This document shows, one piece after another, positions 2,015 through 22,508 of a stretch of DNA of 24,000 nucleotides. Under the pieces are notes generated by a model. It was given only the letters and a program-made list of their open reading frames with translations. It did no database searches and was not told the DNA's origin. The position numbers were made by a program, and so were the translations under genes. Every line of letters begins with the position of its first letter. Positions within the stretch are counted from its first letter, which is position 1. The stretch comes from Erysipelotrichaceae bacterium (GTDB taxonomy: Bacteria > Bacillota_I > Bacilli_A > Erysipelotrichales > Erysipelotrichaceae): contig JAVBWK010000021.1 of NCBI GenBank assembly GCA_036677505.1, positions 18,993 to 42,992 on the forward strand. Reading direction: 5' to 3'.

Positions 2015-2146
2015 AATTTCACCCTCACTACGCAACTTCTATTATACGAAAGTATCATCAATTCTGACAGAAGAAATTTGAACGTTCATGTCATATTTCT
2101 GCCATAATCCTTTGGGATAATAAAGATGCTTAAAGGAGGTGTGCAC

Positions 2147-5282: not shown

Positions 5283-5299
5283 AATCCTGTGTTTTTTTA
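5271..5299 (+). terminator. Rho-independent terminator of the two-component operon
   Basis: The stem ACACAGGA (5271..5278) pairs with TCCTGTGT (5285..5292) across a 6-nt loop, followed by T7 (5293..5299). It overlaps the kinase stop codon. Confidence 0.85.
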
Positions 5300-5380: not shown

Positions 5381-5401
5381 AAAAGGGCAATGCCCTTTTT
5401 A
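5381..5401. terminator. Short bidirectional hairpin terminator at the 3' end of the minus-strand operon
   Basis: AAAAAGGGCAATGCCCTTTTT has a GGGC/GCCC core flanked by A5 and T5, so it reads as hairpin plus U-run on either strand. It overlaps the amidohydrolase stop (5399..5401). Confidence 0.6.
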
Positions 5402-6658: not shown

Positions 6659-6659
6659 A

Positions 6660-7592
6660 TTATCCCTCCCTGTCCAGTATTCTCGCATTCTCAACGAACA
6701 CGTCGATAAACGCCTGCCGATCGACATCGACCAGCACTTTCGCATTGATTTTTCTTTTATCCGCCCAACTGCGCACATCGCCCACGGTTTTCCCGCGCGT
6801 CAGTTCCCCCTGCGTTTCCACATCTACAAACAATTCCACAGACGTGAAAAGATCAGGAGCCAACAGTTCTACGACCGGACACAAATCAAACAGCGGACTG
6901 CCCGGTTGTCCCAAATGTTTAGCATACTGCGAATAAAACTCCAACAGCTCATACGTCAGTCTGGACGCTTTGCCCTTGGTATTGAACCGATCGATCTCAG
7001 AGTGAAGAATCATCGCACGATGACACACTTCCAACCCACTCATCGTAATTTCTATACCTGAAGCAAACACGACCTTCGCCGCCTGCGGATCCACATAAAT
7101 ATTAAACTCTGCCTGCGAAGTGATATTCCCCGAATACAGCGAACCGCCCATCAGGGCAATTCGCTTTATTCTGTTTTTTATTGTTGGATACTTCATCAGA
7201 AGCATAGCCACATTGGTCAACGGACCGGTCGCAACGATCGTCACCTTATCTTGTTGAGCAGAGAGCGTCTGATACATCCACTCCACCGCATCCAACCCCG
7301 TCACCGAAAACTTCGATTCCGAAAGTATCGGACCGTCCATCCCGCTTTGCCCGTGAGCCACCGGCTGCACATATGTTTTGCCATCCAATGAACACGAAGC
7401 TCCGACGCTGACCTCAACTTTTCGATCAAGATACGAAAGAACCTTAAGCAGATTATCCGTCACTTTCTGAACCGTCTGATTTCCCGCCACCGTCGTACAT
7501 CCCAGCAGTTCAAACTGCTGCGGATGTGCTAACAGTGCACACAACGCAAAAATATCATCGTGCCCCGGATCACAGTCAAAAATGATTTTCAT
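6660..7592 (-). CDS. Inosine/uridine-preferring (IUNH-family) nucleoside hydrolase
   Basis: The start MKIIFDCDPGHDDIFAL contains the DxDxxxDD Ca2+/ribose-binding fingerprint (7554..7577), with AAAGGGGAG upstream. Length is about 310 aa. The TGPLTNVA motif is present. Confidence 0.88.
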   Translation of the reverse strand: MKIIFDCDPGHDDIFALCALLAHPQQFELLGCTTVAGNQTVQKVTDNLLKVLSYLDRKVEVSVGASCSLDGKTYVQPVAHGQSGMDGPILSESKFSVTGLDAVEWMYQTLSAQQDKVTIVATGPLTNVAMLLMKYPTIKNRIKRIALMGGSLYSGNITSQAEFNIYVDPQAAKVVFASGIEITMSGLEVCHRAMILHSEIDRFNTKGKASRLTYELLEFYSQYAKHLGQPGSPLFDLCPVVELLAPDLFTSVELFVDVETQGELTRGKTVGDVRSWADKRKINAKVLVDVDRQAFIDVFVENARILDREG

Positions 7593-7593
7593 C

Positions 7594-8517
7594 TTACTCC
7601 CCTTTGATCTTAGCGCGGCGATACTCAATGATCGAGTACGCTACGATACCGACAAACACCGCCACATACGGAATGGTCTGAATGATTTCGGATGGCAAAG
7701 CGAACAATTGCAAGGCATTGGAAAGTGCATCAAACATCCCAAACAGAAACGCCGTCATCGTCACCAGCCACACATTGCCCATACCCATCGCCTCCGCCGC
7801 CAAACCGATAAACCCGCGACCGGCCGTCATATTTTGGGTAAAGAACGAAAGATATCCCATCGACATATAGGCACCGCCCAACGCCGCCAGCAAACCGCTC
7901 AGCAACAACGCAATCGTCTTGATCTGCCTGACATTCACCCCAACGGACTCCGCCGCATGCGGATCTTTACCGACCGCCTTCATACGCAAGCCCAACGGCG
8001 TCTGATACATCAGCAGATACACCAAAATGACCGCCGCAAACATAATATACGCCAACACATTGTGACCCGAAAATATTCTTCCTAAAATCGGGATATTCTC
8101 CAATATCGGAATGTTGATTTTCGGAAGCGACCGCGCACTTAACGTTGCACTGGTCCCTTTGGAACCGGTGATGATAAACAACAGGAAAACCGTAAATGAA
8201 CTTGAAAATAAGTTGAGAGCAATCCCTCCCAAAATATTGTTCGTCTTCAATATCAACGTAAAATACGAAAGAATCGAAGCCATGATCATCCCTGCCAGAC
8301 ATGCTGCCAGCAAGCCGATCCACGCATTCTGCGTAAACGCACTGGTTACCGTACCGATAAACGCCGCCATCAGCATCATACCTTCAATCGCAATATTCGC
8401 AATGCCTGCACTATTGGCAATATACGCCGCCAACGCCGCAAACAATATCGGAACAACGACCCGGATGACCGTAAAGCCAAACTCCGGCGTCAGCATAATG
8501 TTCAATACATCAAGCAT
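7594..8517 (-). CDS. ABC transporter permease (BMP/CUT2 nucleoside-type importer, second permease)
   Basis: A 307-aa, highly hydrophobic polytopic protein. Its start overlaps the previous stop by 8 nt, with GGGAGG upstream. Its position and composition match NupQ/RbsC-like permeases. Confidence 0.85.
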   Translation of the reverse strand: MLDVLNIMLTPEFGFTVIRVVVPILFAALAAYIANSAGIANIAIEGMMLMAAFIGTVTSAFTQNAWIGLLAACLAGMIMASILSYFTLILKTNNILGGIALNLFSSSFTVFLLFIITGSKGTSATLSARSLPKINIPILENIPILGRIFSGHNVLAYIMFAAVILVYLLMYQTPLGLRMKAVGKDPHAAESVGVNVRQIKTIALLLSGLLAALGGAYMSMGYLSFFTQNMTAGRGFIGLAAEAMGMGNVWLVTMTAFLFGMFDALSNALQLFALPSEIIQTIPYVAVFVGIVAYSIIEYRRAKIKGE

Positions 8518-9565
8518 GTTGATCGCCTCCCTTCTTAATCAATGCACGTTCGTGATATTTTCTTAAGAAATACTGAGACGAAACAAACAGTACGACCACC
8601 GCTTCAACCACCGCCACGATTTCAACCGGAACATCGGTCGTACGCGCCATGATATCCGCTCCGGTACGCAAATAACTGATCGCAAAGGCCGCCGCAACGA
8701 CACCGACCGGATGATTACGTCCCAACATCGCCATCAGCGCTCCCGTAAACCCAAGGCCCGGCAGTGCCGACCATTGGAAACGATTGTACATGCCCAACAG
8801 TTCCACCGAAGAACCGACGCCTCCGATAAACCCGGAAATAAAGTGAACAACCAGAAACAGCCAGAAAGCATTCATCCCCGAATACTTCGCAAAATTCTTA
8901 TTCAACCCCGTCATCCGGATCGTATAGCCCAATTTGGTATGAAACAGCATCAGCTGTAACAAAACGACCGTAACGATCAGAATAATGATACCAAAGTGAA
9001 TACGGGTCGAAGGAATGATAACCGGCAGTTTTGCCGTTGCCTGAAACAAATGAGAAGCAACACCCGGCACATCCAACGCCTGCATGAAATTTTTAATGAT
9101 AAACAAGCCCAAACCAAACAAAATCGAATTCATCATCAGCGAAGTTACCAACTCATTGGTATTGTACTTCGCCTTAAAGAACCCCGGAATCAACGCTATC
9201 AAACCGCCGACCAAACCGGAAACCAAAATGGTCACAAACGGATGAATCAGCGAACTGCTCATCGTCTGGGTGGCCACTGCCGCCGTCACGACTCCGCAGA
9301 AATAGAAAATCCCCTCGGTACCCAAATTGAACAATTTTGTTCGAAATAACAGCGCCGTCGCCAAACCGGCAAAAGAGAGCGGAATCATCGTTTCAATGAC
9401 ATTGCCCATATAACGCACTTTGGTCAGCGGAGCAAACAACATTTTCGAAAAAGATTCCAACGGCTGAGCGCTGAAAACCAACAGCAAAATAAAGGTAAGA
9501 ACCAAGGCCAGCAAAACGGCTGCCGCCATTTTTACGACTTCGAAGATCCGCTCATTCGCTAACAT
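8510..9565 (-). CDS. ABC transporter permease (BMP/CUT2 nucleoside-type importer, first permease)
   Basis: A 351-aa polytopic membrane protein. Its start overlaps the ATPase stop by 7 nt, with AAGAGGG upstream. Confidence 0.85.
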   Translation of the reverse strand: MLANERIFEVVKMAAAVLLALVLTFILLLVFSAQPLESFSKMLFAPLTKVRYMGNVIETMIPLSFAGLATALLFRTKLFNLGTEGIFYFCGVVTAAVATQTMSSSLIHPFVTILVSGLVGGLIALIPGFFKAKYNTNELVTSLMMNSILFGLGLFIIKNFMQALDVPGVASHLFQATAKLPVIIPSTRIHFGIIILIVTVVLLQLMLFHTKLGYTIRMTGLNKNFAKYSGMNAFWLFLVVHFISGFIGGVGSSVELLGMYNRFQWSALPGLGFTGALMAMLGRNHPVGVVAAAFAISYLRTGADIMARTTDVPVEIVAVVEAVVVLFVSSQYFLRKYHERALIKKGGDQHA

Positions 9566-11118
9566 AAACTGGCCCTCTTTAAACTTTCCTCATCCTGACG
9601 TTTGACGCCAAGCATGTATAACCCCAATTCCATCTCATCGACATCTTTGGTACGATCGAAATGCGCCACGATTTCACCTTCATACATGACGATCAGCCGA
9701 TCGCTGACCTCCATGACCTCATTCAAATCCGCACTAACCAGCAAGATGGCCACATTGCGATTGCGCATGTCAATGAGCTGCTTATGAATAAATTCGGCAC
9801 TGCCGATATCGATACCCCGCGTCGGCTGCTCGGCAATCATGACCTTGGGATCGGTATTGGTCTCACGGGCAACGACCACTTTCTGAATGTTGCCTCCGGA
9901 AAGACTCTCGATTTTTGACTTGTAATTCTTTGTGCGGACACTGAACATTGAGATAAGCTGTGAAGCTACTTTTCCGATAGCCTTATCATTCATAAAAATC
10001 GGACCATTGATTTCCTTACGCCGATAATAACTGGAAATCAGATTCTCCGCTACGGTCGCCCCCTGCGCCACACCTTCCTTCATGCGGTCCTCCGGAATAT
10101 AAGCCAATCCGGCAATGCGCTTCTGATCGACAGAAAGTGAAGTAATATCCTGATCAAGGATAGACCACTTCCCACTGTTGATACCGGACAAACCGACCAA
10201 TCCCTGAACCAGTTCTGACTGGCCATTGCCCTGAACCCCGGCTACACCCAGGATTTCACCCTCGCGAATCGCAAAACTGATATCTTTTAAAATCGGAATA
10301 CCCTTTTTCGTCAGATTCAAACCTTCCACTTTGAAAGCTACCTCGTCGCGATCCGATTCCACTTTAAAATCATCATACGACAGAGAAACTTTACGCCCGA
10401 CAATGAGTTCCGTCATTTGTTCGATCGTAATTTCTTCATTGTTAAATGTCCCGCGACTCTCCCCATTTTGCATGATCGTGATCCGGTCGCTGATCGCCTT
10501 GACCTCATTGAGCTTATGGGAGATGAAGAGAATCGTGTGTCCCATATTTTTAAAGTGTTTCAGATTTTCGAAAAGAGCCTCGGTTTCCTGAGGAGTCAAT
10601 ACAGCGGTCGGCTCATCGAGAATGATGACCTCCGCATCGCGATACAGCGTTTTCAGTATTTCGACCTTTTGCTTGGCACTGACCGTCAAACGCGAGACAC
10701 GCTGTGTCACATCCATATCAAAATTATATTTCTTAGCCAGATTTTTCGTGACGTTGACCGCTTCATTTTTATTAAGAAAGAAACGCTTCTGCCTGGGCTC
10801 CATACCTAAAACGATATTCTCTGCCACCGAAAAATCATCGATCAGCATAAAATGCTGATGAACCATTCCGACCCCATTCAAAATGGCCTCCATGGAATTA
10901 TGAAACTGTGTCGGCTTTCCCCGATAAGTAATCGTTCCCGAAGAAGCATGTTCAATGCCGAAAATGATCTTCATCAGCGTTGACTTCCCTGCGCCGTTTT
11001 CCCCGACAATGGAATGAATTTCGCCTTTACGGAAATCAACACTGACATTGCGATTTGCCACGACACCGTTGGAATAAATTTTTGTGATATCCTTTAAATC
11101 AAGTATGATCTCACTCAT
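9559..11118 (-). CDS. ABC transporter ATP-binding protein with duplicated ATPase domains (CUT2 family)
   Basis: I prefer the start MSEIILDLKDITKIY at 11118. The N-terminal half has Walker A GENGAGKST, signature LSVSAKQKVEI and Walker B VIILDEPT. The C-terminal half has the degenerate GVQGNGQSE, LSGGNIQKV and MIAEQPTRGID, typical of sugar/nucleoside CUT2 ATPases. Confidence 0.9.
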   Translation of the reverse strand: MSEIILDLKDITKIYSNGVVANRNVSVDFRKGEIHSIVGENGAGKSTLMKIIFGIEHASSGTITYRGKPTQFHNSMEAILNGVGMVHQHFMLIDDFSVAENIVLGMEPRQKRFFLNKNEAVNVTKNLAKKYNFDMDVTQRVSRLTVSAKQKVEILKTLYRDAEVIILDEPTAVLTPQETEALFENLKHFKNMGHTILFISHKLNEVKAISDRITIMQNGESRGTFNNEEITIEQMTELIVGRKVSLSYDDFKVESDRDEVAFKVEGLNLTKKGIPILKDISFAIREGEILGVAGVQGNGQSELVQGLVGLSGINSGKWSILDQDITSLSVDQKRIAGLAYIPEDRMKEGVAQGATVAENLISSYYRRKEINGPIFMNDKAIGKVASQLISMFSVRTKNYKSKIESLSGGNIQKVVVARETNTDPKVMIAEQPTRGIDIGSAEFIHKQLIDMRNRNVAILLVSADLNEVMEVSDRLIVMYEGEIVAHFDRTKDVDEMELGLYMLGVKRQDEESLKRASLC

Positions 11119-11135
11119 AAAAACCCTTTCTATAA

Positions 11136-11169
11136 ACGAATGCCCTACACGTCTGTGTAGAGCATTCGT
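11136..11169 (-). promoter_or_regulatory. Intercistronic stem-loop between the binding-protein and ATPase genes
   Basis: A 15-bp stem with one mismatch (11136..11150 pairs with 11155..11169) closes a 4-nt loop. No clear U-tract follows on the minus strand; TTTATAGAAAGGG leads straight into the ATPase RBS. Confidence 0.6.
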
Positions 11170-11189
11170 AAAATTCATGTGATTTCTTC

Positions 11190-12269
11190 TTACGGTTGAA
11201 CGGAAGCTTTAATGGCGTTCCACTCGTCCGCCGTCAGAGTCAATGCGCTCTTAACAACGATTTCGCCGCTGATAACTTTGGCTTCATAAGAAGCAACGAC
11301 ATCACGGATAGCTGCCGGCAATGCATTGTAAACATCGTTCTTCGCCAATCCGACACCGTTTTCCTTGATACCTAAGATTTCAAGTTGTCCATACGGAAGG
11401 GTTCCGGCCAAGTGACGTTGAACGGCTTGCAGAATTGCCAAGTCAACATTCTTTGTACCTGAAGTCAGAATCTTCTCATATTTTGCCTGATCGTTTTTAA
11501 ACAGCAACGCCTGGTCAGCATCAACGCCCAACGCATAACGGTTAGCTTCAACCGCTGCATCAAACAAACCATTGCCCGTACCGCCGGCTGCATGGAAGAT
11601 AATGTCTGCGCCACCGGCATATTGGTTCAACGCAATTTCTTTACCCTTTGCAGGATCGCCGAAGTTATTGGCATATGCGATGAAAATCTTAACATCCGGA
11701 TTGACAGCCTGTGCACCTTGGATATATCCATACAAGAAGTCATTGATACCGGCAAATTCCATACCGCCGATGGCACCGATGATGTTATTGGTCGGATCGG
11801 AATACGGAAGTTCAGTCTTTGTGACCAAACCGGCAACCAAACCGGTCAGATAGCCCAGTTCATTGGCTTTATAGAACATGCCATAGGTATTCGGGTTTGA
11901 CGGAGGTGTATCCCAGTCAAAGTTGATAAACTTTTTGTCCGGGAATTGAGCGATGACTTTTTCAAATGTCGGGGAAGCTTCCCAGTTACCGCCGATGATG
12001 ATGTCATAATCGCCTTCAGCTGCATCTAAATAATAGTTTTCCCACTTGGATTGGTCACGACCCATTTCGATAATGGTCGTTTCGGCATCTTCGATTTCAG
12101 CTTCAATCAAAGCCATGCCATTGGCAGTTACATCAAAGTAGGATTGGTCGCCACGGAAAGGCACCAACAACGCCACTTTTACGCCTTCTTTTTCTTCTTC
12201 AGGAGCGGCACAGCCGACAAACCCGAAAACGATGAACAAGGCCAATAAAACCTTCAATAAATTCTTCAT
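11190..12269 (-). CDS. BMP-family (PnrA/Med/TmpC-like) ABC substrate-binding lipoprotein
   Basis: The signal peptide has a lipobox, LFIVFGFVG-C (Cys20 at 12210..12212). The body (VALLVP..GDQSY.D, GGNWE, FHAAGGTGNG, ALGVDADQ) matches basic-membrane-protein nucleoside-binding proteins. The start overlaps the upstream stop (ATGA), with GAGGAGGAAA upstream. Confidence 0.88.
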   Translation of the reverse strand: MKNLLKVLLALFIVFGFVGCAAPEEEKEGVKVALLVPFRGDQSYFDVTANGMALIEAEIEDAETTIIEMGRDQSKWENYYLDAAEGDYDIIIGGNWEASPTFEKVIAQFPDKKFINFDWDTPPSNPNTYGMFYKANELGYLTGLVAGLVTKTELPYSDPTNNIIGAIGGMEFAGINDFLYGYIQGAQAVNPDVKIFIAYANNFGDPAKGKEIALNQYAGGADIIFHAAGGTGNGLFDAAVEANRYALGVDADQALLFKNDQAKYEKILTSGTKNVDLAILQAVQRHLAGTLPYGQLEILGIKENGVGLAKNDVYNALPAAIRDVVASYEAKVISGEIVVKSALTLTADEWNAIKASVQP

Positions 12270-14377
12270 GTTTCCTCCTCGTTTATATTAAAATCAGCTC
12301 TGCTGATTCTAATCCCGGTAACAGATATCCCATGCTTACTGCCACTGATAAACCCTAAACAACCACAAACCGATATATCCTCAATGAATATTTTACTCAC
12401 AGTTTCTCCACTAACTTTGAATATAATTATAGGGGATACACCAGTAATGTGCAATGAAATTTGAGATGATTTCACATGTGAAATTTGTACTTTTGCAAGA
12501 TTCTGGAATATTTTGTTGATTCTCTGATTTATATGAAATTCATCCTCATTTATACGAGCGATTTCCACATATTTTTGAGCTCCTTGAACACCAAAACAGA
12601 CGGAACTGCCCGGTTGCCACTGTTTCGTTTCAATCTCGGCATCGACACCTTTCCATCGGACATCCCCAAAAAGCAACATCGCATTCTCATCTGATACACA
12701 AGTAATTCCTCCATCAACAACCCAATCGCCATTGACATGCGTGCAGCCGGCAATCTCACGATGATGTCCCATCATAAAAGTCACTCCGAAATCTTCGATG
12801 GGCAGCTTTGTGACATCCCAACAGAAGTCTGCATTGCCCGAAATCAAAATCGAATCGATCCACACATGTGTCAGAAATGTCCGATGAAGACTGGTCAATT
12901 CAACGCCCACTTCGACAATCAGTGAAAAATCACTGGGAATTTTCAATTCAAAGCTCTCAAAATTCTGGGTCAGTATGAATGCTTGCGATCGCGCCGTTTT
13001 GCCATTGATATCACGGACCAACAGACATGCTTCAAACTGCTCCTCTGTTCCTGCTTTGAGTCGTGTCTGTATCGTCTGTCCCGGCCATACAACAGGTGCC
13101 AGCGACGGTTCATAACGTCCGTCATGCAGTTCACTCGCCCTGAAATAGGTTTTCTTAATGACTTCAACTTTAGAATTTGAATAAGCTCCGTGAACATTGA
13201 TCTGTAAAGCTCTCTGACTTAACGCATCTTCCATGACTGCATTAACTATGGTTCCATGGAAGTATGGATGCCATCGTCCATAAAATCCATGCGTTGAGTA
13301 TGGCAGGCTGAAACTGAAATCATTGGGATGATTTAACCGTTCGTCGGTGAGCAACGGGTTGATTTTATTGGTCAATCGACCGAAGTACAGGGTTTGTTGC
13401 GTGGCATCAAGCATATTGATGCTCCCGAACAATCCCGAAGATAAAACCACATCATTGATCTTATTCACCCAAGGGACATATAAGCCGTCAATCCCTACCA
13501 AAGCTCCCATGATCGAACCAACATTGCCGACATTGCAATCCGTATCATACCCTGCATTGACACAAATCAACAAGGTATCTCTGAAATTGCCCTTGCCATG
13601 AACCATGGCCATCACCATGACCGCCATATTCGGAATGATCGGACATATACCGCCATAACAGGCATACGGAAAACTGTCCTGAATAAAGCGCAATGTATCT
13701 TCCCAGTCGTTCGACTGAGATGCATATGCGATGACTTCGCGTGCCACACGGACATATTCACTGGCCGGATCACAATAAGTCAGCGCTTTTTCGAGTACCT
13801 CAGTTATATTTTTATGTGTAAACGCCAGACTGATCGCAGCACTGACAAATGCGGCTCCCTCAACGGCCTCACCATCATGCGAGACCGAAGCTGCTTTTCT
13901 GGCCAGATCGACTGCCAATGCCACATCTTCATACGCTACATACGCCCAACCGTCACTGAAAATCTGCCCGCCGATCTGCTCGGAAAGTTCTTTGCCGTTG
14001 GTATGGTGACTGCCGCTTTCCGGCGCAGTCATCCCCATCTTTAAGTTATGATACATCGTATGTTCAGTCGAAACACCGACTCCGCCCCACCAGAAAAAAC
14101 CGTGCTCCTGCGCAATCACATTGAGCATGGTATCGGCCATGTCCTGAGCCGTAACTTCGCTTGCTTGTTTATCCAATAAAACCCGCGTAAAGTATAGCGG
14201 ACCGTTGGTATCATCATCGGCCCCAAACACCGAATAATCCACCACAAAATCCTCGATTTTACCGAAGGATTCCTTGATGTTCTGTGATGACCAGTTTTCA
14301 ACCGGAGCTCCCAATCGTACACCGATCACCTTTCCAAGCCAAGCGGCACGGATATCTTCCAACCAATTCGACATCAA
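12266..14377 (-). CDS. ADP-ribosylglycohydrolase-family domain (residues ~1-335) fused to a ~350-aa beta-rich C-terminal region (LamG/DUF1080-like jelly-roll suspected)
   Basis: ARH hallmarks are GKVIGVRLGAPVENW, the metal ligands GADDDTNGP (D54-T57), and NAGYDTDCNVGNVGSIMGALVG (D278/D280). The C-terminal half has alternating beta-strand patterns and a HVNGDWVVDGGITC...LLFGD..WKGVDAEIE signature. The start overlaps the esterase stop (ATGA). Confidence 0.8.
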   Translation of the reverse strand: MMSNWLEDIRAAWLGKVIGVRLGAPVENWSSQNIKESFGKIEDFVVDYSVFGADDDTNGPLYFTRVLLDKQASEVTAQDMADTMLNVIAQEHGFFWWGGVGVSTEHTMYHNLKMGMTAPESGSHHTNGKELSEQIGGQIFSDGWAYVAYEDVALAVDLARKAASVSHDGEAVEGAAFVSAAISLAFTHKNITEVLEKALTYCDPASEYVRVAREVIAYASQSNDWEDTLRFIQDSFPYACYGGICPIIPNMAVMVMAMVHGKGNFRDTLLICVNAGYDTDCNVGNVGSIMGALVGIDGLYVPWVNKINDVVLSSGLFGSINMLDATQQTLYFGRLTNKINPLLTDERLNHPNDFSFSLPYSTHGFYGRWHPYFHGTIVNAVMEDALSQRALQINVHGAYSNSKVEVIKKTYFRASELHDGRYEPSLAPVVWPGQTIQTRLKAGTEEQFEACLLVRDINGKTARSQAFILTQNFESFELKIPSDFSLIVEVGVELTSLHRTFLTHVWIDSILISGNADFCWDVTKLPIEDFGVTFMMGHHREIAGCTHVNGDWVVDGGITCVSDENAMLLFGDVRWKGVDAEIETKQWQPGSSVCFGVQGAQKYVEIARINEDEFHINQRINKIFQNLAKVQISHVKSSQISLHITGVSPIIIFKVSGETVSKIFIEDISVCGCLGFISGSKHGISVTGIRISRADFNINEEET

Positions 14378-15258
14378 CGGACTCCAAACACGAAATCAGC
14401 AATATCCTTGGTTCGCTCATCATCGAAAAACACCATTTCCGCATGATTGGCATCATCAATATAACCCAGATCCACAACACATCCGGCATCCGTCAATGCT
14501 TTCGCAAAATCCCGCGTCTGATGCCACGGAACCATGGAGTCTGACTTTCCATGTCTGAGGAAAAACGGAAACTCCGTTTTCTTGATATGATTTTGCGGAG
14601 AAAGCAACTTCGCTTTGTCGATGTTATCTTTAAAAGGTCCCCCGATCAGCCAACTGGCCAGCGAATCATCCTCCGTCATCGGCCAGAAATTATCATACCC
14701 CAACTGTTCCGTCTGATCATCCATCGTCAGAAAGTCGTACACGCCATAATAACCGATGACCCCTGCCAGAGATACTTTCGCAGATCCATATCCCAGTGAT
14801 TTATCCTCAAACTCACCGCTTTGCATAGTCAATGCGGTTAGAGCGACCAAATGGGCACCCGCAGACTCACCCCACAGAAATATTTTTTTTGTATCGATCG
14901 GAAAATGCTCGGGATTGACACTCAAATAGCGGATCGCCGTCTTGATATCAAATAACTGCTGAGGAAACGGTTTCTCTAACGCCAAGGTGTAACTGACACA
15001 TGCAACCGCGATGCCGTGACTGATCGGATGAGTCATCCACTCAACAAACTTCGAACGGTGATGACCGCTGATCCACCCGCCGCCATGCACGGCAATGATC
15101 AGCGGAAAAGGACCTTCGCCTTCAGGTAAATACAAATCCAGTGTCTTGGTCCCCTTTTCCATATAACATACATCTAAATGTTTGCGCTCGAATGCATCCA
15201 AATGGATTTCTCCTAAGTCAAACGTCAGAAAATCTTTCACTTTTTGCGTAATTTCCAT
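14374..15258 (-). CDS. Alpha/beta-hydrolase esterase (hormone-sensitive-lipase/Aes-like family)
   Basis: The oxyanion motif is AVHGGGW and the nucleophile elbow is GESAGAH (Ser132 at 14863..14865). The distal acid and His lie in GKSDSMVP...DDANHAE. AAGGAG sits 6 nt before the ATG, and only 12 nt separate it from the activase stop. Confidence 0.85.
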   Translation of the reverse strand: MEITQKVKDFLTFDLGEIHLDAFERKHLDVCYMEKGTKTLDLYLPEGEGPFPLIIAVHGGGWISGHHRSKFVEWMTHPISHGIAVACVSYTLALEKPFPQQLFDIKTAIRYLSVNPEHFPIDTKKIFLWGESAGAHLVALTALTMQSGEFEDKSLGYGSAKVSLAGVIGYYGVYDFLTMDDQTEQLGYDNFWPMTEDDSLASWLIGGPFKDNIDKAKLLSPQNHIKKTEFPFFLRHGKSDSMVPWHQTRDFAKALTDAGCVVDLGYIDDANHAEMVFFDDERTKDIADFVFGVR

Positions 15259-15270
15259 ACGAATCTCCTT

Positions 15271-16110
15271 TTATACGCTGACGACTTCGCCAGCCCCCAA
15301 ACTCAAAGCATAGCGCTTATATTCCTCAAAGGTATCGATATCCAACGAAGCACTTCCCAAAATATCCAGTCCCTCTTGCCTTACACCGTACGGACGGTAA
15401 CGGATCAGCTTGATCCGCGCCCGATCTTTAACGATGTTGACAACATCCGCAATCGTTTTGCGGTTTTGTTCATCAAACCGCGGCAGACAGACGATCCGCA
15501 CTTCCGTCAGTTTTCCGATAGAAAGTAAATATGCCAGATTGTCGAGAACCGCCTCATACTCATGGCCGGTAAGTTCTTTATGAAATCTTGGATCGGTCGC
15601 TTTGACATCCAACATGACCCCATCACATACGCTCATCAGCTCAGGGTATTGAACAAACCGTGCAAACCCGTTGGAATCAATCAGCGTCGACATTCCCATC
15701 GCTTTCACCTTCTCAAACAACTCTCTGAGAAACTCCGGGTGCATCATGCATTCACCGCCGCTGACCGTAATCCCTCGCACAAAAGCCGATACTTCTTTCA
15801 GTTTCTCGATGACATCATCACTCGACATCGTATTGATTTTCGGACTGGCCAGATGCGGACACACCTTGATACACGTATCGCACTGCTCGCAAACCGTTTC
15901 ATCCCAAACCACTTTTCCGTCTTTCAACGACAATGCTTTTGACGGACAGGTAGGCACGCAGATACCGCAATGGATACACATATTAATCGTCTCCGGATTA
16001 TGGCAATACCAGCATCGGAAAGGACAGGACTGCAAAAAGATGGCCATCCGGTTTCCGGGGCCATCTACGTTAGAGAAAGGAATGATTCTGTTGACCGGAG
16101 CAAACAGCAT
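15271..16110 (-). CDS. yjjW: Glycyl-radical enzyme activating enzyme (radical SAM, YjjW-type)
   Basis: It carries DGPGNR (the activase motif) and CPFRCWYC, a CX3CX2C motif at 16003..16026. Two ferredoxin-like motifs, CIHCGICVPTCP and CEQCDTCIKVCP, lie at 15856..15978, and SGGEC is a SAM-binding motif. The start codon shares one base with the upstream stop (TAATG at 16108..16112). Confidence 0.88.
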   Translation of the reverse strand: MLFAPVNRIIPFSNVDGPGNRMAIFLQSCPFRCWYCHNPETINMCIHCGICVPTCPSKALSLKDGKVVWDETVCEQCDTCIKVCPHLASPKINTMSSDDVIEKLKEVSAFVRGITVSGGECMMHPEFLRELFEKVKAMGMSTLIDSNGFARFVQYPELMSVCDGVMLDVKATDPRFHKELTGHEYEAVLDNLAYLLSIGKLTEVRIVCLPRFDEQNRKTIADVVNIVKDRARIKLIRYRPYGVRQEGLDILGSASLDIDTFEEYKRYALSLGAGEVVSV

Positions 16111-17606
16111 TATTGGGTGACCTTGCGATCGAGGGCTTTCGCCAAATCACGCGATCCCTGACCCAATACGGTCGCACCGTTTAAGACGGCTTCTTTGCGA
16201 TCCAGTTTTTCCAGTTCACTGCGCTTGACCAGATAACCGGTGACGCGCACGACATCATTGTTTTCACAGTAAGCCGAGAAATAGCGCATACCGGCATTCA
16301 TTGCTCCCTTGATGATATCCAACAGCGATTCCGGTGTATTCTTCCACGTTTCTTCAAACCGGAAAATATCACCGATGCCTGTGGGGAAATATTTGTGGAA
16401 GCGGCCGGAATGAGCGATCTGCTTATGGATTTCCGGTTCACTGCCGATCGGAATACGGGCTCCCGGCGATGAATCCAAACCATCTCTTTCAATGCCGACC
16501 TGGGCATGCAGCCAGTAACGGTCACTGCTGTTTTCACTGTATGGCGCTTTATGTAAAGATACCAAATGATCCAGATGAGCAATGATCTCTTCGCCCAAAT
16601 CATCGGCAGATGTATTGTTTCCATATCCTTTTTTCTTATCTTCGATGCCTAACAGCGTATTGACACACTCGGCCAAACCAACCAGGCCAAACATACCGAC
16701 AAAGTTCTCCTGTTTGATAAATCCTTCTTTGACTAAGAAATTACTCTTAAAGAATGCGGCATCTTCAACCATAAAACGGATGCGCAAATCCATAAACTCG
16801 GTCATCAGATCGACATACTTCGGTAACAGTACATTTTTGAAATGTTCAATCGATTGAGCTTCTTTGGCGATGTTTGCCAAGCGCAGACGCGGCAGGGTAT
16901 ATCCGCCTCCGGCAATGCGCAAACCGTTATAGCAGCTGGCCAATCCGTAATTCTTTTCGCCAAACTCAGCCGAGAACATTTTATGATTGGCAAAGCTTGG
17001 TTTCGCCGTAGAAAGCATAACCTGGGCACATAGAGTAGCGAACTCATCGCCGGTCAGTTGGGGATCATAGCGGACGGTCATGTTGGGAACTGCGGTTTGT
17101 AAACGGAGGGTTTCTTTTAAGATGATCCGACCGGCCTTCGTATCTTTCGGACCGATGTCCGCATGGACAAAGGAATCGCACAAAACACGATCGATATGCA
17201 ACAAGAATAAGCCGATCGCCTTAGTGGCTTCCTTTTCATCGACGATAAAAGGTTCAAGCAGTTCGTCCAGATTTCCTAAAAATACCGGAAAGGACGATAC
17301 GGAGGGAACGTGGCGATACATGATCATCAAAGCGTTGGTCGCTTCCCATATATCCGTCGGCGGGTCCAACTGTAAAAATTTACTGCCGTTTTTCATCAAG
17401 ACGGAATAATCTGGTAGGATATACCTAGGACGGAAAGGCAGTGCGCCTTCAAACAAATCACAAATCATTCCGGCTTCTTTAGCCTTGATAAACTCCGGAT
17501 TATACGGCAGAGTCGTATCGGTATTTTCGCCCAGTTTAGCCAGATTGATAAATTGCTGATGAAATGACAGAGTTGTATCGGTTACGATTTCATACGCTGT
17601 AGACAT
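16110..17606 (-). CDS. yjjI: YjjI-family (DUF3029) glycyl-radical enzyme, function unknown
   Basis: A 498-aa soluble protein translationally coupled to the activase. It has a C-terminal glycyl-radical fingerprint, VVRVTGYLV (R454-Y458 at 16233..16247), about 40 residues from the end. Its size matches the ~500-aa YjjI family rather than ~800-aa PFL-type GREs. GGAGGG lies upstream of the ATG. Confidence 0.75.
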   Translation of the reverse strand: MSTAYEIVTDTTLSFHQQFINLAKLGENTDTTLPYNPEFIKAKEAGMICDLFEGALPFRPRYILPDYSVLMKNGSKFLQLDPPTDIWEATNALMIMYRHVPSVSSFPVFLGNLDELLEPFIVDEKEATKAIGLFLLHIDRVLCDSFVHADIGPKDTKAGRIILKETLRLQTAVPNMTVRYDPQLTGDEFATLCAQVMLSTAKPSFANHKMFSAEFGEKNYGLASCYNGLRIAGGGYTLPRLRLANIAKEAQSIEHFKNVLLPKYVDLMTEFMDLRIRFMVEDAAFFKSNFLVKEGFIKQENFVGMFGLVGLAECVNTLLGIEDKKKGYGNNTSADDLGEEIIAHLDHLVSLHKAPYSENSSDRYWLHAQVGIERDGLDSSPGARIPIGSEPEIHKQIAHSGRFHKYFPTGIGDIFRFEETWKNTPESLLDIIKGAMNAGMRYFSAYCENNDVVRVTGYLVKRSELEKLDRKEAVLNGATVLGQGSRDLAKALDRKVTQ

Positions 17607-17715
17607 AATAGTAAACCCTCCTAATTTATATCATTATATAACAAAATCTTTCAAAATGCACAAACTTTCCGTTGTTTTTCCGCTATAATAAAAGTATCAG
17701 CCCAGGAGGTTTATC
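17607..17715. promoter_or_regulatory. 109-bp divergent control region between the GRE operon and the sulfatase gene
   Basis: Minus-strand candidate: TTGAAA (17654..17649), 18-nt spacer, TATAAA (17630..17625). Plus-strand candidate: TATAAT (17684..17689) with a poor -35. The RBSs are GGAGGG (17621..17616, minus) and AGGAGG (17704..17709, plus). Confidence 0.4.
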
Positions 17716-19329
17716 ATGGAACAAAAACCCAATATTTTAATCATAACGACCGATCAGCAGCGCTTTGATGCCATCGGTGCCGTCGATCCGTTGATATTTT
17801 CTCCGAATCTTGACCAACTGGCTAAAGAAGGTGCGCTTTACCGACATACGTACACCCCCAATCCGGTGTGTGTGCCGGCCAGGCAGAACATTCTGACCGG
17901 ACTGACCGCACGTCATCACGGATTTGATGACAACGACTTTGCCCGACACCGTTATTCCCCTTATTATTTACCGAAACTGCCTCAGATTCTTTCGGATGCC
18001 GGATATGATACAATTGCCATCGGAAAACTTCATTTTGAGCCAAATCGCAGACACGACGGATTCCATCGCTACTTTATGATCGATGAGGTTCCGCGTCACC
18101 GCGAAGAAGATGATTATGCCTTATATTTGAAAGACAACGGCTATGAGCACATTTCTGCGCTACACGGTGTCCGCGATCCGCTGTATATGATGCCTCAGCG
18201 ATCGGTGGTGGATAAGAAACATCACTGTTCGACCTGGGTGGCAGATCTGACGATCGAACAGCTGAAAATCAACCGCGGGAAACGACCGTTTTTCTTCTGG
18301 GCCGGATTTGTTCACCCGCATCCGCCGATGGATGTCAGTGAAGAGTTTGCGGATATATATAAGGATAAGCAGCTTCCCGAGCCGGTCAAATCAAAGACTT
18401 CGGTCAGTTGGCTTGCACAGGAAAACCGGAATATCGTCGATTATCCCAATGAGGATGTGTTCCGCAGGTTCAGGGAACTGTATTTTGCTTCGATCGCGCA
18501 GGTAGATGAGCAAATCGGACGGATCATCGGTACTCTGAAGGAATTGAATCTCTACGATCAGACCTGTATCATTTTCTGCTCGGATCACGGAGAAATGCTT
18601 GGTGATATGGATACATTCCAAAAATTCTTACCTTATGACGGTTCTTCCCGAGTGCCCTTTATCATCCGCTATCCCGAGAAAATCAAACCCGGCACGACGG
18701 TGGATGCATTGATTAATCTCAATGACATCATGCCGACTTTACTTGATCTTGCAAGTGTTGAGTACCCGGCACCTTTTGAGTTGGCCGGTAAATCCGTTTT
18801 TGATTTGAATGAGCGAGAAGAAACCTTTATTGAACACGGCCGTTATGCACGGCGCTGGATAAGCATAGTCACTCAGACACATAAATATGCTTATTACTAT
18901 GGCGGCGGTCGCGAAGAACTGTTTGATTTGATCCGTGATCCCAAAGAACAGGTCAATCTGATTGAAGCGAATGCTTCCCGTGTTGAACATATTAGGACGT
19001 TATTACGTATAAAGTGCATCGATTGGGAATGCCGCTTCGGATTGGAAGATCATATTGAAAATCATGAGTTCAAACGGTTTGAGATTCCTGAGCTTCGTCC
19101 CTTTGGCGGTACCGGTGAACTGATATTCCCAAAACGGATCATGGACCCCATCGAGAAAAGCAAGATTCAGCCTCTAAGAGAGCAAATCGTCAATGTCGTA
19201 AAGGATGAGCCGGTAATACGTTTGAAAGATATCGATTTCTCCTACATGCTAAAGACACATCAGCTTACCGAAGAAGATGTCGCATGGATCATAGAACAAG
19301 ATAATCTGAACAAAGAAAGGATCGGATAA
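17716..19329 (+). CDS. Cys-type sulfatase (formylglycine-dependent), no signal peptide
   Basis: N-terminal NILIITTDQQRFD, and the formylglycine (FGly) motif C-V-P-A-R followed by QNILTG (17869..17883). GKLHF and CSDHGEMLGD are sulfatase metal and active-site motifs. The N-terminus MEQKPNILII is not a signal sequence. Confidence 0.88.
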   Translation: MEQKPNILIITTDQQRFDAIGAVDPLIFSPNLDQLAKEGALYRHTYTPNPVCVPARQNILTGLTARHHGFDDNDFARHRYSPYYLPKLPQILSDAGYDTIAIGKLHFEPNRRHDGFHRYFMIDEVPRHREEDDYALYLKDNGYEHISALHGVRDPLYMMPQRSVVDKKHHCSTWVADLTIEQLKINRGKRPFFFWAGFVHPHPPMDVSEEFADIYKDKQLPEPVKSKTSVSWLAQENRNIVDYPNEDVFRRFRELYFASIAQVDEQIGRIIGTLKELNLYDQTCIIFCSDHGEMLGDMDTFQKFLPYDGSSRVPFIIRYPEKIKPGTTVDALINLNDIMPTLLDLASVEYPAPFELAGKSVFDLNEREETFIEHGRYARRWISIVTQTHKYAYYYGGGREELFDLIRDPKEQVNLIEANASRVEHIRTLLRIKCIDWECRFGLEDHIENHEFKRFEIPELRPFGGTGELIFPKRIMDPIEKSKIQPLREQIVNVVKDEPVIRLKDIDFSYMLKTHQLTEEDVAWIIEQDNLNKERIG

Positions 19330-19330
19330 T

Positions 19331-19780
19331 ATGCTAGAACAAATCGAACGCTTGGAAAGCCAATATGTATTTGACAAGTTTGACCGGGTGACCGCCTATG
19401 ACATCGGCACACGAATCGCAAACAAAGCGATTGCACAACAGCTGCCCATCACCATTGAAATTTATCTCAATGATATGACCGTCTATCGGTACAGCCATAC
19501 CGGCTCCAACCCCATCAATATGAATTGGTCCATACGCAAGCGCAATTCTGTTTTGATGTTTGGTCACAGTACGATGTGGCTCAATGAGAAGCTCAAAGGT
19601 GAATATCCATTGCTTGAAGCGCGCTACGGGCTTAGCAGTGAAGACTATACCCTGTTGGAAGGTTCATTTCCGATTCTGACGCACAGCGGCGTGATCGGTG
19701 CCATCAGTGTCAGCGGCTTGAAGCCTCAGGAAGACCATCAGATCATCATCGATACATTAACTGAATATCTGGCAAAGTAA
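19331..19780 (+). CDS. UPF0303 / DUF336 (GlcG/HbpS-like, 'heme-degrading domain') protein
   Basis: A 149-aa protein starting 1 nt after the sulfatase stop. ...ITIEIYLNDMTVYRYSHTGSNPINMNWSIRKRNSV..GAISVSGLKPQEDHQ matches my memory of the UPF0303 family. Confidence 0.65.
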   Translation: MLEQIERLESQYVFDKFDRVTAYDIGTRIANKAIAQQLPITIEIYLNDMTVYRYSHTGSNPINMNWSIRKRNSVLMFGHSTMWLNEKLKGEYPLLEARYGLSSEDYTLLEGSFPILTHSGVIGAISVSGLKPQEDHQIIIDTLTEYLAK

Positions 19781-19810: not shown

Positions 19811-20740
19811 TTACTTCTTTTTGATCGGTGTCAGTAAGTCGAGCTGTTTTGTCTCAAAGGGGATCGAAGGATCATTGAAACTGATGATATCGATACACTC
19901 CTCAAGGCAGATGCGATGTTTTGATGGAGTCCAATCCACCTCATAGGATTCACTGTTTAATGTCCACTGCCATAATTTCTGCCAGCGCTCGCCGATCACA
20001 TCCATGGTCGTAACCAGACCCGCATACAGTCCGCCTTCAAAATCAATTTTCCACAGCGGGGCTTCGACCTCAAGATTCTTATCGATGGCTACCCACATCT
20101 GATATCCGTACACTTCTTTGCCCGGTTGAGGATCGGGATCATTGAATCCGAAATGACGGAATCCCGGCTGATGGATCAAATCGTGTTTACTTATAAATTT
20201 ATTCATGATTTCCCAACAATCATCTTCCGGCGTTTTGCTTTCAGCCCTGGCACACGCAAACGTCATCTTGGGCAGGCGGATCAACCGCACTTCACTAAAA
20301 TCCTGATTTTCTTTCATCGTTATTTTCTCCTTTTCCGATAAGGAAACTGACAGAGACTGATCATCGGATATCGACTCAAAATCAATGAGAAACTGATCCA
20401 CGGATATCGCCTGATCTCCCTGATCGATCAGCTGACTGATGATGGTTTTAAGTTTTGACAATTGCTCCATTTGATCATCGATCTTATCCAGCTGAGCCGA
20501 TAAAACCTCGATCAGAACGGCCAGACGCTGACTTTTGATAACTCGTTTGATATCTGCGATCGGCAAGTCCAGCTTTCTTAAAAAACTGATCTGTGCGATC
20601 CGCATTCTATTTCCCGGGTCATAATAGCGATAGCCATTGTCCATCCGAACGCTCTTGAGAATTCCGGATTCTTCCCAGAAGCGTAAGGTACGATGGGACA
20701 ATCCGGTCTGATGCGCGACATCTCCGATTTTTACTAACAT
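19811..20740 (-). CDS. MerR-family transcriptional regulator with a C-terminal GyrI-like/effector-binding domain
   Basis: The N-terminal HTH is MLVKIGDVAHQTGLSHRTLRFWEESGIL...NGYRYY. A coiled-coil linker follows. The C-terminal ~160 aa (VRLIRLPKMTFACARA...YGYQMWVAI...GGLYAGLVT) fits the GyrI-like ligand-binding fold. Confidence 0.88.
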   Translation of the reverse strand: MLVKIGDVAHQTGLSHRTLRFWEESGILKSVRMDNGYRYYDPGNRMRIAQISFLRKLDLPIADIKRVIKSQRLAVLIEVLSAQLDKIDDQMEQLSKLKTIISQLIDQGDQAISVDQFLIDFESISDDQSLSVSLSEKEKITMKENQDFSEVRLIRLPKMTFACARAESKTPEDDCWEIMNKFISKHDLIHQPGFRHFGFNDPDPQPGKEVYGYQMWVAIDKNLEVEAPLWKIDFEGGLYAGLVTTMDVIGERWQKLWQWTLNSESYEVDWTPSKHRICLEECIDIISFNDPSIPFETKQLDLLTPIKKK

Positions 20741-20761
20741 ACTCCTGTCCTCCTTGATATG

Positions 20762-20792
20762 ATCATAAATGCTTACGTAACGGAAGAGTCAA
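20762..20792 (-). promoter_or_regulatory. Candidate MerR-type promoter/operator with a 19-bp spacer and central palindrome
   Basis: On the minus strand: TTGACT (20792..20787), a 19-nt spacer, then TATGAT (20767..20762). The spacer contains the perfect palindrome TTACGTAA (20773..20780). A-tracts lie upstream (GCAAAAAAGCAAAAAAG). Confidence 0.45.
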
Positions 20793-20835
20793 ATACTTTT
20801 TTGCTTTTTTGCATTTATATTATATCGCAAACAAA

Positions 20836-20863
20836 AAGGAAATCTGATACAATCAGATTCCTT
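20836..20863 (-). terminator. Rho-independent terminator downstream of the GH5 gene
   Basis: The minus-strand RNA AAGGAATCTGA-TTGTA-TCAGATTTCCTT (one bulged base) is followed by TTTTGTTTG. Confidence 0.75.
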
Positions 20864-20882
20864 TGATACAACATGATTTTAA

Positions 20883-22508
20883 TCAGAGCGTATTTCTTCG
20901 AGAATGATGCTGATGATTGAAATCATCGGACACCTTTTTGATCTTGATCGAAATCCATTGAACGTCACCTTCAAGTACATGGATTAAAATCGATGATTTC
21001 CCATCAGGAACTTCGATCACCGCACCATCGGCACACTGCCGTCCTAACTGATTCAACTTCATTTCTGAGGTCTTATCATTGACTGTTAAGTTCACTTTCG
21101 ATACCGTGTTGACGATCACATCGACACAAAGAGCGACACGCATCGCTTTGCGGCAAGTAAACCAATAGTTCAATGACTCATTGCTTTGCAATCTGACACA
21201 CAGCCACTCATCCTCATTCCAAGATGCCCCACCGCCATGCGCAAAATTCGGTTTGTCCCGATCTCCTTGCACAAAGATAATATCTCTGCCATCATCAACT
21301 CTGAAACCGACATTGAGATTCCTTGAATTTTGTATTCTGGCCTCTTGATCCCAAGAGTAGAAAATGGCCGGAATTTTAATGTCCGGACGACGAAACAGAG
21401 AATTCACGACTTCATCAACCAGCACACAGTTTTCCAGTTTCAGATTTTCCAGATATTCACCAAGAATGCCCTGAGCATCCTTTTTACTTAGTTCTGTACC
21501 TTTTTCCATATATTCGGTCAAACGGTGCCATTCTTTGGGACGTCTTACCGAAACCATCGAGTTGGTCGTATCCATTTTCTTGTATGTCCAGAAATTCCAC
21601 GAAATATCCAAATCCTCATACATCGCAAAGGCACCGCAGTACCACTCTTTATTGTTCTCCCCGCCCTCACCCATAAAAATCGGCACATCCCACTTTTCAC
21701 GAAGATCAAGATACTTCTTTAAGCTCTCTGCATCCGGACGATTCCAATACTTATGAAACTGATACAACACATTATCATCGAGCTTATGCGTAAATATCGA
21801 CCAGTCCGTTGACCAATGAATCCCTTCCAAAGAAATCATGTGATACGGATCGACCGCTCGGATCTCCTTTATCAGCCGGTCGTAAAACGGATACACCTGA
21901 TCATTGACTTGCCCATGAAACTCCGGGACAGGTTCGTTCAATAAGTCATAACAGGCGATGATCTGAGAGTTTCTGTATCTTGTGGCAATCTCTTTCCAAA
22001 GAAAAACGGTCAAATCCTGATAGGCTCTACTCGTAAACAGTTCAGGGAAATCATTCTCACAATCATCGATATTGGCCCCCGTCTGTCCGCCCGGAGCCCC
22101 ATGCAAATCAAGGATCACATAGACATCCCTTCGATCGCAATGATTTATGATGTCATCCAGGATTTTCCAGTGATCCTCATTGATGTTCTGGTTTTCATCC
22201 ATCAGAAACCGCCATAGCAACGGAATCCGCACGGAGTTAAATCCGTCATTCGCAATTTTATCTATGTCCGACTTTGCGATGTAGTTGCGATAGTACTTCT
22301 GCCAGAAGATATGGGCATCTTCATCACCAATCAGTGAGGTGATGACTTTCTCAATCTTTCTTGGGCGATCCCCCTGATTGGGAAAACGCCACATATACCC
22401 TTCCGGAAGCATCCAGCTTCCCAGTCCGACACCGCGTAGCATCAGTTTCTTCCCTTGGGGATCAATAATGTCCTTCCCCTGGGTATGTACAAAATCTTTT
22501 TGAATCAT
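20883..22508 (-). CDS. Glycoside hydrolase family 5 protein (exo-beta-glucanase/beta-glucosidase-like) with a C-terminal beta-rich domain, no signal peptide
   Basis: GH5 landmarks are VRIPL, VILDLHGAPGGQTG, the acid/base LLNEP (E192), HKYW, and the nucleophile FMGEGGE (E281). About 170 extra C-terminal residues follow. The N-terminus MIQKDFVHTQGKD is not a signal peptide. Confidence 0.82.
   Translation of the reverse strand: MIQKDFVHTQGKDIIDPQGKKLMLRGVGLGSWMLPEGYMWRFPNQGDRPRKIEKVITSLIGDEDAHIFWQKYYRNYIAKSDIDKIANDGFNSVRIPLLWRFLMDENQNINEDHWKILDDIINHCDRRDVYVILDLHGAPGGQTGANIDDCENDFPELFTSRAYQDLTVFLWKEIATRYRNSQIIACYDLLNEPVPEFHGQVNDQVYPFYDRLIKEIRAVDPYHMISLEGIHWSTDWSIFTHKLDDNVLYQFHKYWNRPDAESLKKYLDLREKWDVPIFMGEGGENNKEWYCGAFAMYEDLDISWNFWTYKKMDTTNSMVSVRRPKEWHRLTEYMEKGTELSKKDAQGILGEYLENLKLENCVLVDEVVNSLFRRPDIKIPAIFYSWDQEARIQNSRNLNVGFRVDDGRDIIFVQGDRDKPNFAHGGGASWNEDEWLCVRLQSNESLNYWFTCRKAMRVALCVDVIVNTVSKVNLTVNDKTSEMKLNQLGRQCADGAVIEVPDGKSSILIHVLEGDVQWISIKIKKVSDDFNHQHHSRRNTL

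Follow-up and report, generated by a model that had tools for sequence, protein, structure and literature searches.

One gene in the 24,000-nucleotide stretch of DNA that is analysed here (the window, from contig JAVBWK010000021.1 of an Erysipelotrichaceae bacterium) is a yjjI gene, and its product can be taken, with very little doubt, to be a glycyl radical enzyme (GRE) that has Gly457 and Cys225 as its sites. Judged by its sequence, the gene is an ordinary orthologue of E. coli yjjI, paired with the gene of a YjjW activase, and it brings nothing structurally new to the family. The explanation that we favour, and consider probable when taken as a whole, is of a functional yjjI orthologue whose product is a minimal GRE, co-translated with its dedicated YjjW and acting, most likely, on a ribosyl substrate.

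YjjI is one of the few GREs of E. coli K-12 without an assigned reaction. The interest of the present case lies in that family-level question of function, and in the lead that nucleoside operons provide, rather than in the window gene itself. The recurrent nucleoside-operon setting narrows the search for a substrate to nucleosides, ribose and ribose or deoxyribose phosphates, a short list of purchasable compounds. If the explanation is correct, it would add a new radical reaction to the ways in which gut and subsurface bacteria metabolise nucleosides anaerobically, and define the smallest working GRE scaffold. The searchable literature yielded no functional study of YjjI, of YjjW, of DUF3029/PF11230 or of a GRE with nucleosides. 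YjjI is also absent from a 2026 review that treats the GRE superfamily. To that extent, the first-pass annotation of this DNA was right to call the chemistry of the protein unknown.

The YjjI protein, its activase and its predicted fold

Family membership is unambiguous in the profile searches. The TIGR04040 model ('YjjI family glycine radical enzyme') scores the window protein at 670.8 bits (cutoff, 498.3; E 1e-201), with residues 4-496 aligned on positions 3-496 of the 497-position profile, and PF11230 ('YjjI-like', formerly DUF3029) matches over its full length at 684.8 bits (cutoff, 23; E 6e-206). The product of the adjacent gene scores 353.6 bits with TIGR04041 ('YjjW family glycine radical enzyme activase'; cutoff, 250.2) and also has Pfam Radical_SAM and Fer4 matches. 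A compact GRE with an adjacent activase, which is what the first-pass annotation had proposed, is therefore upheld by family and activase hidden Markov models (HMMs) scoring above their curated cutoffs. The same annotation had also thought the scaffold rare, and that part has to be given up, because the family numbers thousands and this gene is simply an orthologue of E. coli yjjI. The window protein and E. coli K-12 YjjI are 41% identical over 495 residues (E 4e-124), and their alignment, which the annotation had suggested making, brings both motif loops, SCYN and RVTGY, into register. One search (E <= 1e-5) places 3,234 clusters at 90% identity in the YjjI family; with E. coli YjjI as the query, 2,237 clusters are found at E <= 1e-20, and at 50% identity the family has 454 representatives. 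The nearest genomes, at 94-95% identity, are the groundwater metagenome-assembled genomes (MAGs) 'Firmicutes bacterium HGW-Firmicutes-19/-10' and an Erysipelotrichaceae MAG. When the PDB was searched with the window protein as a single sequence, no solved relative came up.

The positions first assigned to the open reading frame (ORF), to RVTGY, to Gly457 and to Cys225 (collected in Table 1) all proved correct when the window sequence was read again. So did the one-base overlap between the two genes: the TAA stop of yjjI and the ATG of yjjW are read as TAATG at 16108..16112. Cys225 lies in the context GLASCYNGLRIAGGG, with an ASCYN motif; 232 residues separate it from Gly457, which in turn is followed by 41 residues to the C-terminus. 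The first-pass annotation likened that Cys-to-Gly spacing to the spacing in NrdD, the class III ribonucleotide reductase (RNR). The likeness is loose only, since the corresponding distance in NrdD is ~290-297 residues (C384 to G681 in the E. coli enzyme, C290 to G580 in that of T4). Its statement that the protein is about 300 residues shorter than enzymes of the pyruvate formate-lyase (PFL) class is roughly right: 498 residues are to be compared with 759 for PFL and 764-810 for the other GRE chains among its structural matches in the PDB. YjjW has the motif C29x3C33x2C36, ferredoxin-like four-Cys motifs at residues 45-55 and 74-84, DGPGNR at 16-21 and GGE at 118.

Conservation was followed in two sets of homologues, one of 55 sequences at >=58% identity (A1) and the other of 27 sequences reaching down to 35% identity (A3). 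Gly457, Arg454 and Cys225 are invariant in both sets, so that the assignment of Gly457, for which conservation across homologues had been named as the test, holds among close and distant relatives alike. The only variants of the Gly motif that are seen among the homologues conform to R[VI][TS]G[YF]. S224, C225 and N227 are invariant in the other loop, and Cys225 is the sole invariant one among the six cysteines of YjjI. Other invariant polar residues are E53, R61, Y62, H148, R240, E294, H367, Q369, D375 and R384 (family residues that are present in the window protein, as are both loops, and invariant in A3), together with D114, D139, N175 and R494. Many of the invariant polar residues fall on predicted barrel strands of the structure model described below, or where such strands end, a distribution that would suit a substrate that is polar, polyhydroxylated and probably anionic.

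A profile search of PDB sequences connects both loops with GREs of known structure. It places the YjjI segment 'YaiaSCYNgL' on 'YAIACCVSPM' of PFL (E 0.0014-0.012), with Cys225 on PFL Cys419, and the YjjI Gly motif on 'RVSGY' of PFL and on 'RITGYLV' of the Prevotella copri NrdD. PFL Cys419 is the cysteine that faces Gly734, and in solved GREs the finger-loop cysteine lies ~4-5 Å from the Gly loop.

An AlphaFold2 model of the window protein, built on the 55-sequence alignment, has a mean predicted local distance difference test score (pLDDT) of 91.4 and a pTM of 0.90. The predicted strands of its first half (62-64, 109-112, 148-151, 175-180 and 204-207) are followed by a hairpin, 221-223/227-229, and those of its second half (240-242, 302-309, 364-368, 413-417 and 442-447) by another, 452-455/458-461. 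Cys225 is held at the predicted tip of the first hairpin and Gly457 at that of the second. The strand order thus fits the GRE plan, in which two five-stranded half-barrels are each followed by a finger loop. In a Foldseek comparison of the model with the PDB, the top 50 matches are all GREs or NrdD (probability 1.00; TM-score on the query, TMq, 0.60-0.75). The best of them is the P. copri NrdD (8p2s_B; E 2.7e-16, TMq 0.75); the T4 NrdD (1h78) has a TMq of 0.71 and a TMt of 0.67, and the class III RNRs are followed by PflD, YbiW, PFL and the glycerol and propanediol dehydratases. A predicted structure had been proposed as the way to look for a ten-stranded GRE barrel; the model is consistent with one, and its closest PDB matches are exclusively of that kind. 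Invariance, alignment on PFL Cys419 and placement at a predicted hairpin tip likewise strengthen the suggestion, also made in the first-pass annotation, that Cys225 is a candidate radical-transfer cysteine.

Nucleoside genes around yjjI and the putative substrate

Eighty genome and eighty metagenome loci with YjjI relatives were examined; their ORFs were clustered and scored with HMMs built from the clusters. Pfam confirmed cluster representatives as PNP/UDP phosphorylases, cytidine deaminase, adenosine deaminase, a phosphopentomutase-type metalloenzyme, uridine kinase and DeoC aldolase. Neighbours were counted in the loci with adequate flanks, and a locus was positive if it had, within 10 kb, genes for a nucleoside/ribose enzyme or for a Bmp-type ATP-binding cassette (ABC) importer: 52 of 69 genome loci (75%) and 21 of 49 metagenome loci (43%) are positive, or 73 of 118 when the samples are combined. 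Chance co-location would be expected at roughly one locus in ten, a figure that is an estimate and not a computed control, and which assumes that nucleoside genes make up ~0.5% of a genome and that ~18 genes occupy 20 kb.

The GRE pair lies inside an importer operon, in the order SBP-yjjI-yjjW-ATPase-permease-permease (SBP, substrate-binding protein), at 24 of 79 loci, often with a gene for a Udp-like phosphorylase before it and with cdd, deoC, add, deoB and PNP genes after it. Eight metagenome loci have a ribokinase-like gene, often directly upstream of yjjI. More distant members follow a similar pattern. The locus of a 43%-identical homologue (L087) reads Rih-ARH-PfkB-PNP-sulfatase-yjjI-yjjW-MFS-Bmp (ARH, ADP-ribosylglycohydrolase; MFS, major facilitator superfamily). 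The E. coli yjjIW genes are divergent from deoCABD, and those of Edwardsiella lie between deoCABD and a gene for a NupC-family transporter. The yjjW gene itself is adjacent to yjjI at 71 of the 79 related loci.

Could YjjI be a real GRE whose nucleoside neighbourhood is coincidental, or peculiar to certain lineages, and which acts on an unrelated small metabolite, perhaps one that has to do with the anaerobic metabolism of nitrogen or nitrate? We think this unlikely, and the observations that lend it weight are best set out together with the others that weigh against the explanation favoured here. At 45 of the 118 loci (38%), no gene for nucleosides or ribose lies closer than 10 kb, and the yjjI neighbours in Proteus, on a 71%-GC contig and on an archaeal contig are unrelated to nucleosides. 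Both samples of loci are phylogenetically clustered (mostly Bacillota, at >=49% identity to the query), which limits their independence. In E. coli, yjjI is co-expressed with nitrate/nitrogen (nar) genes in a bicluster (PMC3228777). The Bmp family of binding proteins has riboflavin binders too, one of which (4iil) is among the solved relatives of the window's SBP. The alignment of YjjI with E. coli NrdD, another comparison that had been suggested at the outset, confirms homology (hhalign; Prob 94.9%, E 4.6e-8) and is unreliable around the Cys loop, which it misplaces, the NrdD loop being ~10 residues longer; it was not used to map C225 onto C384. Finally, the arguments for the substrate and for the type of reaction are ones of guilt by association. 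What speaks against coincidence is that the link recurs in differing gene orders and with non-homologous transporters (Bmp-type ABC importers in Bacillota, NupC and deoCABD in Enterobacterales), and that it does so with hydrolytic (Rih, ARH, ribokinase) as well as phosphorolytic (Udp, PNP, DeoB) routes. Chance also does not readily account for the 24 loci at which yjjIW is inserted between the SBP gene and the ATPase gene of the importer.

The literature on the E. coli gene adds that yjjI has been listed among the operons that FNR activates directly under anaerobiosis (PMC3688515). A role in nitrogen assimilation has been proposed for it (PMC3228777); that proposal, which rests on the bicluster just referred to, is not adopted here.

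Because of the conserved gene neighbourhood, then, the substrate of YjjI is probably ribosyl or nucleoside-linked: it would be a nucleoside brought in by an importer of the Bmp/PnrA type or a (deoxy)ribose phosphate released from a nucleoside. (Deoxy)ribose phosphate is the one intermediate that hydrolase-plus-kinase and phosphorylase-plus-mutase contexts have in common. By analogy with the rest of its family, YjjW would use SAM (S-adenosylmethionine) and the [4Fe-4S] cluster of its CX3CX2C motif to take the alpha-hydrogen from Gly457. The Gly457 radical would then turn Cys225, in the finger loop opposite, into a thiyl radical, as the invariance of that residue, its alignment with PFL Cys419 and the predicted hairpins suggest, and the Cys225 thiyl radical would abstract a hydrogen atom from the substrate.

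The survey of loci also turned up multiple copies of yjjI. One metagenome contig (L101; JAEEGL015297968.1) bears two yjjI-yjjW pairs, and two MAGs have two separate yjjI loci each, a Holdemania MAG (L018 and L025) and Erysipelotrichaceae RUG14081 (L015 and L023). The YjjI family thus has paralogues in one and the same genome, which possibly differ in substrate.

Individual loci depart from the common arrangement in other ways. No yjjW was called beside yjjI in L062, L072, L074, L023, L027 and L132; in the first three of these, yjjI comes after two genes, of clusters c28 and c29, that encode a GH13-like protein and a small Cys-rich one. In L090 (GCA_024449855.1; 30% GC), the gene for a yjjI homologue (P0136) is directly downstream of a Bmp-type permease gene. 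The DNA of that locus and the recorded protein do not match under translation table 11, a discrepancy that an alternative genetic code, or a difference in assembly, might explain.

The yjjI operon and its surroundings in the window

The window's yjjI comes first in a block of ten minus-strand genes, closely packed or overlapping, that extends from 17606 down to 5399 (Table 1).

Table 1. The yjjI gene, its motifs and the other genes of its block, in window coordinates
Feature	Positions	Strand	Remarks
yjjI	16110..17606	minus	498-aa YjjI-family GRE; ATG start
Shine-Dalgarno AGGAGG	17617..17622	minus	10 nt 5' of the yjjI ATG; read from sequence
Glycyl-radical loop R454-V-T-G457-Y458	16233..16247	minus	Gly457 codon GGT, 16236..16238
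Cys loop S224-C225-Y226-N227	16926..16937	minus	Cys225 codon TGC, 16932..16934; candidate thiyl radical site
yjjW, radical-SAM activase	15271..16110	minus	279 aa; start overlaps yjjI stop; TIGR04041
BD-FAE / alpha-beta hydrolase esterase	14374..15258	minus	PF20434, 173 bits
ARH-family protein, 703 aa	12266..14377	minus	PF03747, 169.5 bits, residues 11-299 only
Bmp/PnrA-family ABC substrate-binding lipoprotein (SBP)	11190..12269	minus	PF02608, 159 bits
Tandem-domain ABC ATPase of Bmp-type importer	9559..11178	minus	two ABC_tran stretches
Two BPD_transp_2 permeases	8510..9565 and 7594..8517	minus	PF02653, 116 and 107 bits
RihA/RihC-like nucleoside hydrolase	6660..7628	minus	PF01156, 289 bits; RihA model 312 bits, below its cutoff of 433
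M20-family amidohydrolase, last gene of the block	5399..6778	minus	TIGR01891, 169.7 bits (cutoff 153.75)

The esterase gene is kept downstream of yjjW in L001, L002, L003, L009, L091 and L092. The ARH family is found beside yjjIW at eight genome and five metagenome loci, and also in L087. The C-terminal ~400 residues of the window's ARH protein have no Pfam or NCBIfam match, and a search of PDB sequences with it brought up two weak relatives only (MJ1187 and DraG), both of them related to its N-terminal domain.

The nearest solved relatives of the SBP are 7x0r ('Lbp'), TmpC/PnrA (2fqw), S. pneumoniae lipoproteins (6y9u) and BmpD (6shu), and its partner ATPase has below-cutoff matches to the ATPases of B6, arabinose, xylose and ribose importers. 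The true start of the Rih-like hydrolase is probably a few codons downstream of the one listed. The true start of the M20-family protein, too, probably lies downstream of the listed ATG, because its TIGR01891 match begins at residue 55.

A single G+C-rich hairpin with a T-tract (5271..5292) is found at the end of the block, an Rfam scan of the window detected no riboswitch or other RNA, and scans for promoters and terminators did no better than on shuffled sequence (15 promoter-like sites where 21.4 were expected, and 17 terminator-like ones where 12.4 were).

In the stretch 17716..19780 (plus strand), the gene of a Cys-type sulfatase, with CVPAR at residue 52 and without an obvious signal peptide, is divergent from yjjI and is followed by a gene for an HbpS/GlcG-like protein of 149 residues; the window shows no gene for an anaerobic sulfatase-maturing enzyme. 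A sulfatase gene is also directly beside yjjI in L018 (53% identity), in L087 (29% identity, same strand) and in L001, L002, L091 and L092, which are close relatives. A specific functional link between sulfatase and YjjI was considered and is not adopted, the L087 sulfatase being only 29% identical to that of the window.

For two long ORFs, 431..2035 (minus; 534 residues) and 2596..3222 (plus; 208 residues), Pfam and NCBIfam gave no match at E <= 1e-3; the latter ORF is directly upstream of genes for an OmpR-type response regulator (3232..3918) and a histidine kinase (3915..5282). On the minus strand, a gene for a MerR-family regulator with a Cass2 effector-binding domain (19811..20740) is found beside that of a 541-residue protein of the GH5 'cellulase' family (20883..22508), and this pair (19811..22508) appears to be unrelated to the yjjI operon.

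YjjI compared with NrdD, PFL and the GRE eliminases

NrdD is the best structural match of YjjI, has a C-terminal Gly loop of the form R[VI]TGY and is, like the YjjI loci, part of nucleoside-related biology. A predicted NrdD-like domain in the E. coli yjjI product has been remarked upon (PMC3228777). YjjI might, then, be a divergent form of class III RNR (or a ribonucleoside reductase of that class) that makes, by the chemistry of NrdD, deoxyribosyl compounds from imported ribonucleosides; the hhalign probability quoted above, a sub-threshold Pfam NRDD match and a context of nucleoside uptake and catabolism that includes deoC would agree with that. We nevertheless consider such a reductase quite unlikely. 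The match to the Pfam NRDD model (PF13597) is partial (residues 243-350), and its 22.1 bits fall short of the gathering score (26.2). The second cysteine of NrdD (C175 in E. coli, C79 in T4) has no equivalent in YjjI: hhalign places N-C175 in a two-residue insertion between Y62 and I63, and neither A1 nor A3 discloses a second invariant cysteine. Only the non-conserved C447 is found in the 40 residues before the Gly loop, where a Zn(Cys)4 site was sought, and Pfam finds no ATP cone in the window protein. YjjI is also 150-250 residues shorter than NrdD. Its activase, with two ferredoxin-like motifs, is of the YjjW type and not NrdG-like, scoring only 44.5-67.3 bits on NrdG models with cutoffs of 126-131.

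The relationship with PFL (PflB) is of another sort. The Cys-loop segment of YjjI aligns with that of PFL residue for residue, C225 falling on C419, RVTGY falls on RVSGY, and the predicted barrel fold is the same. That segment (PNLT...YAIA[S/C]C; E ~1e-3) is the sole significant local similarity of YjjI to solved proteins, and one might make of it, of a sub-threshold PFL-like Pfam match and of the former annotation of the Haemophilus orthologue as a 'pflB homologue' (cited in PMC3228777) a C-C lyase of the PFL kind, with a 2-keto acid or a comparable small molecule as its substrate. This is highly improbable: YjjI has Ser224-Cys225 in place of Cys418-Cys419 and is ~260 residues shorter than PFL, its score with PF02901 (PFL-like) is 20.9 bits against a threshold of 24.3, the window protein has no match to PF01228 (Gly_radical), and no genes for handling acetyl-CoA or formate recur in the neighbourhoods. 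As far as its sequence tells, YjjI is GRE-like, yet a member of neither the NrdD nor the PFL family.

The GRE 1,2-eliminases (glycerol and propanediol dehydratases, CutC, HypD and the PflD/YbiW sugar-phosphate dehydratases) resemble YjjI in having one catalytic cysteine and an activase with an N-terminal ferredoxin-like insert, and they are among its structural matches (8id0, 8yjo, 8id7 and 1r8w). The best matches of YjjW outside its own model are with eliminase-type activases (164 bits for the T4HPD activase model and 152 bits for PFLE_PFLC). The eliminases differ from YjjI in being ~300 residues longer, and YjjI has no significant sequence match outside the Cys-loop strand. The Cys loop of GRE 1,2-eliminases carries C-x-E, unlike the invariant C-Y-N of the YjjI loop.

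A ribosyl substrate, if that is what YjjI acts upon, leaves a choice of reactions. Because a second cysteine is missing, because the activase is of the eliminase type and because the C-Y-N loop is invariant, we would guess, tentatively, at a redox-neutral radical elimination (of the dehydration or lyase type) rather than an NrdD-type reduction. Models for it are provided by the first half-reaction of ribonucleotide reductase and by the GRE 1,2-eliminases. To go further is to speculate, and what follows is unlikely to be correct: YjjI might be the radical enzyme of an unrecognised branch of anaerobic nucleoside/pentose catabolism, for example an 'RNR half-reaction' dehydratase or lyase that converts a ribonucleoside, or the ribose-5-phosphate in which the ribokinase and phosphopentomutase routes meet, to a 2-deoxy-3-keto pentose derivative, and might represent an evolutionary intermediate between class III RNR and PFL-type enzymes.

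The closest comparison is with E. coli itself, where YjjI (b4380) and YjjW (b4379) are encoded in the same order, yjjI and then yjjW, with overlapping ends, and where nucleoside genes are near, as they are in the window. The difference is one of setting: the E. coli pair stands alone and is divergent from deoCABD, whereas the window pair heads a ten-gene operon.

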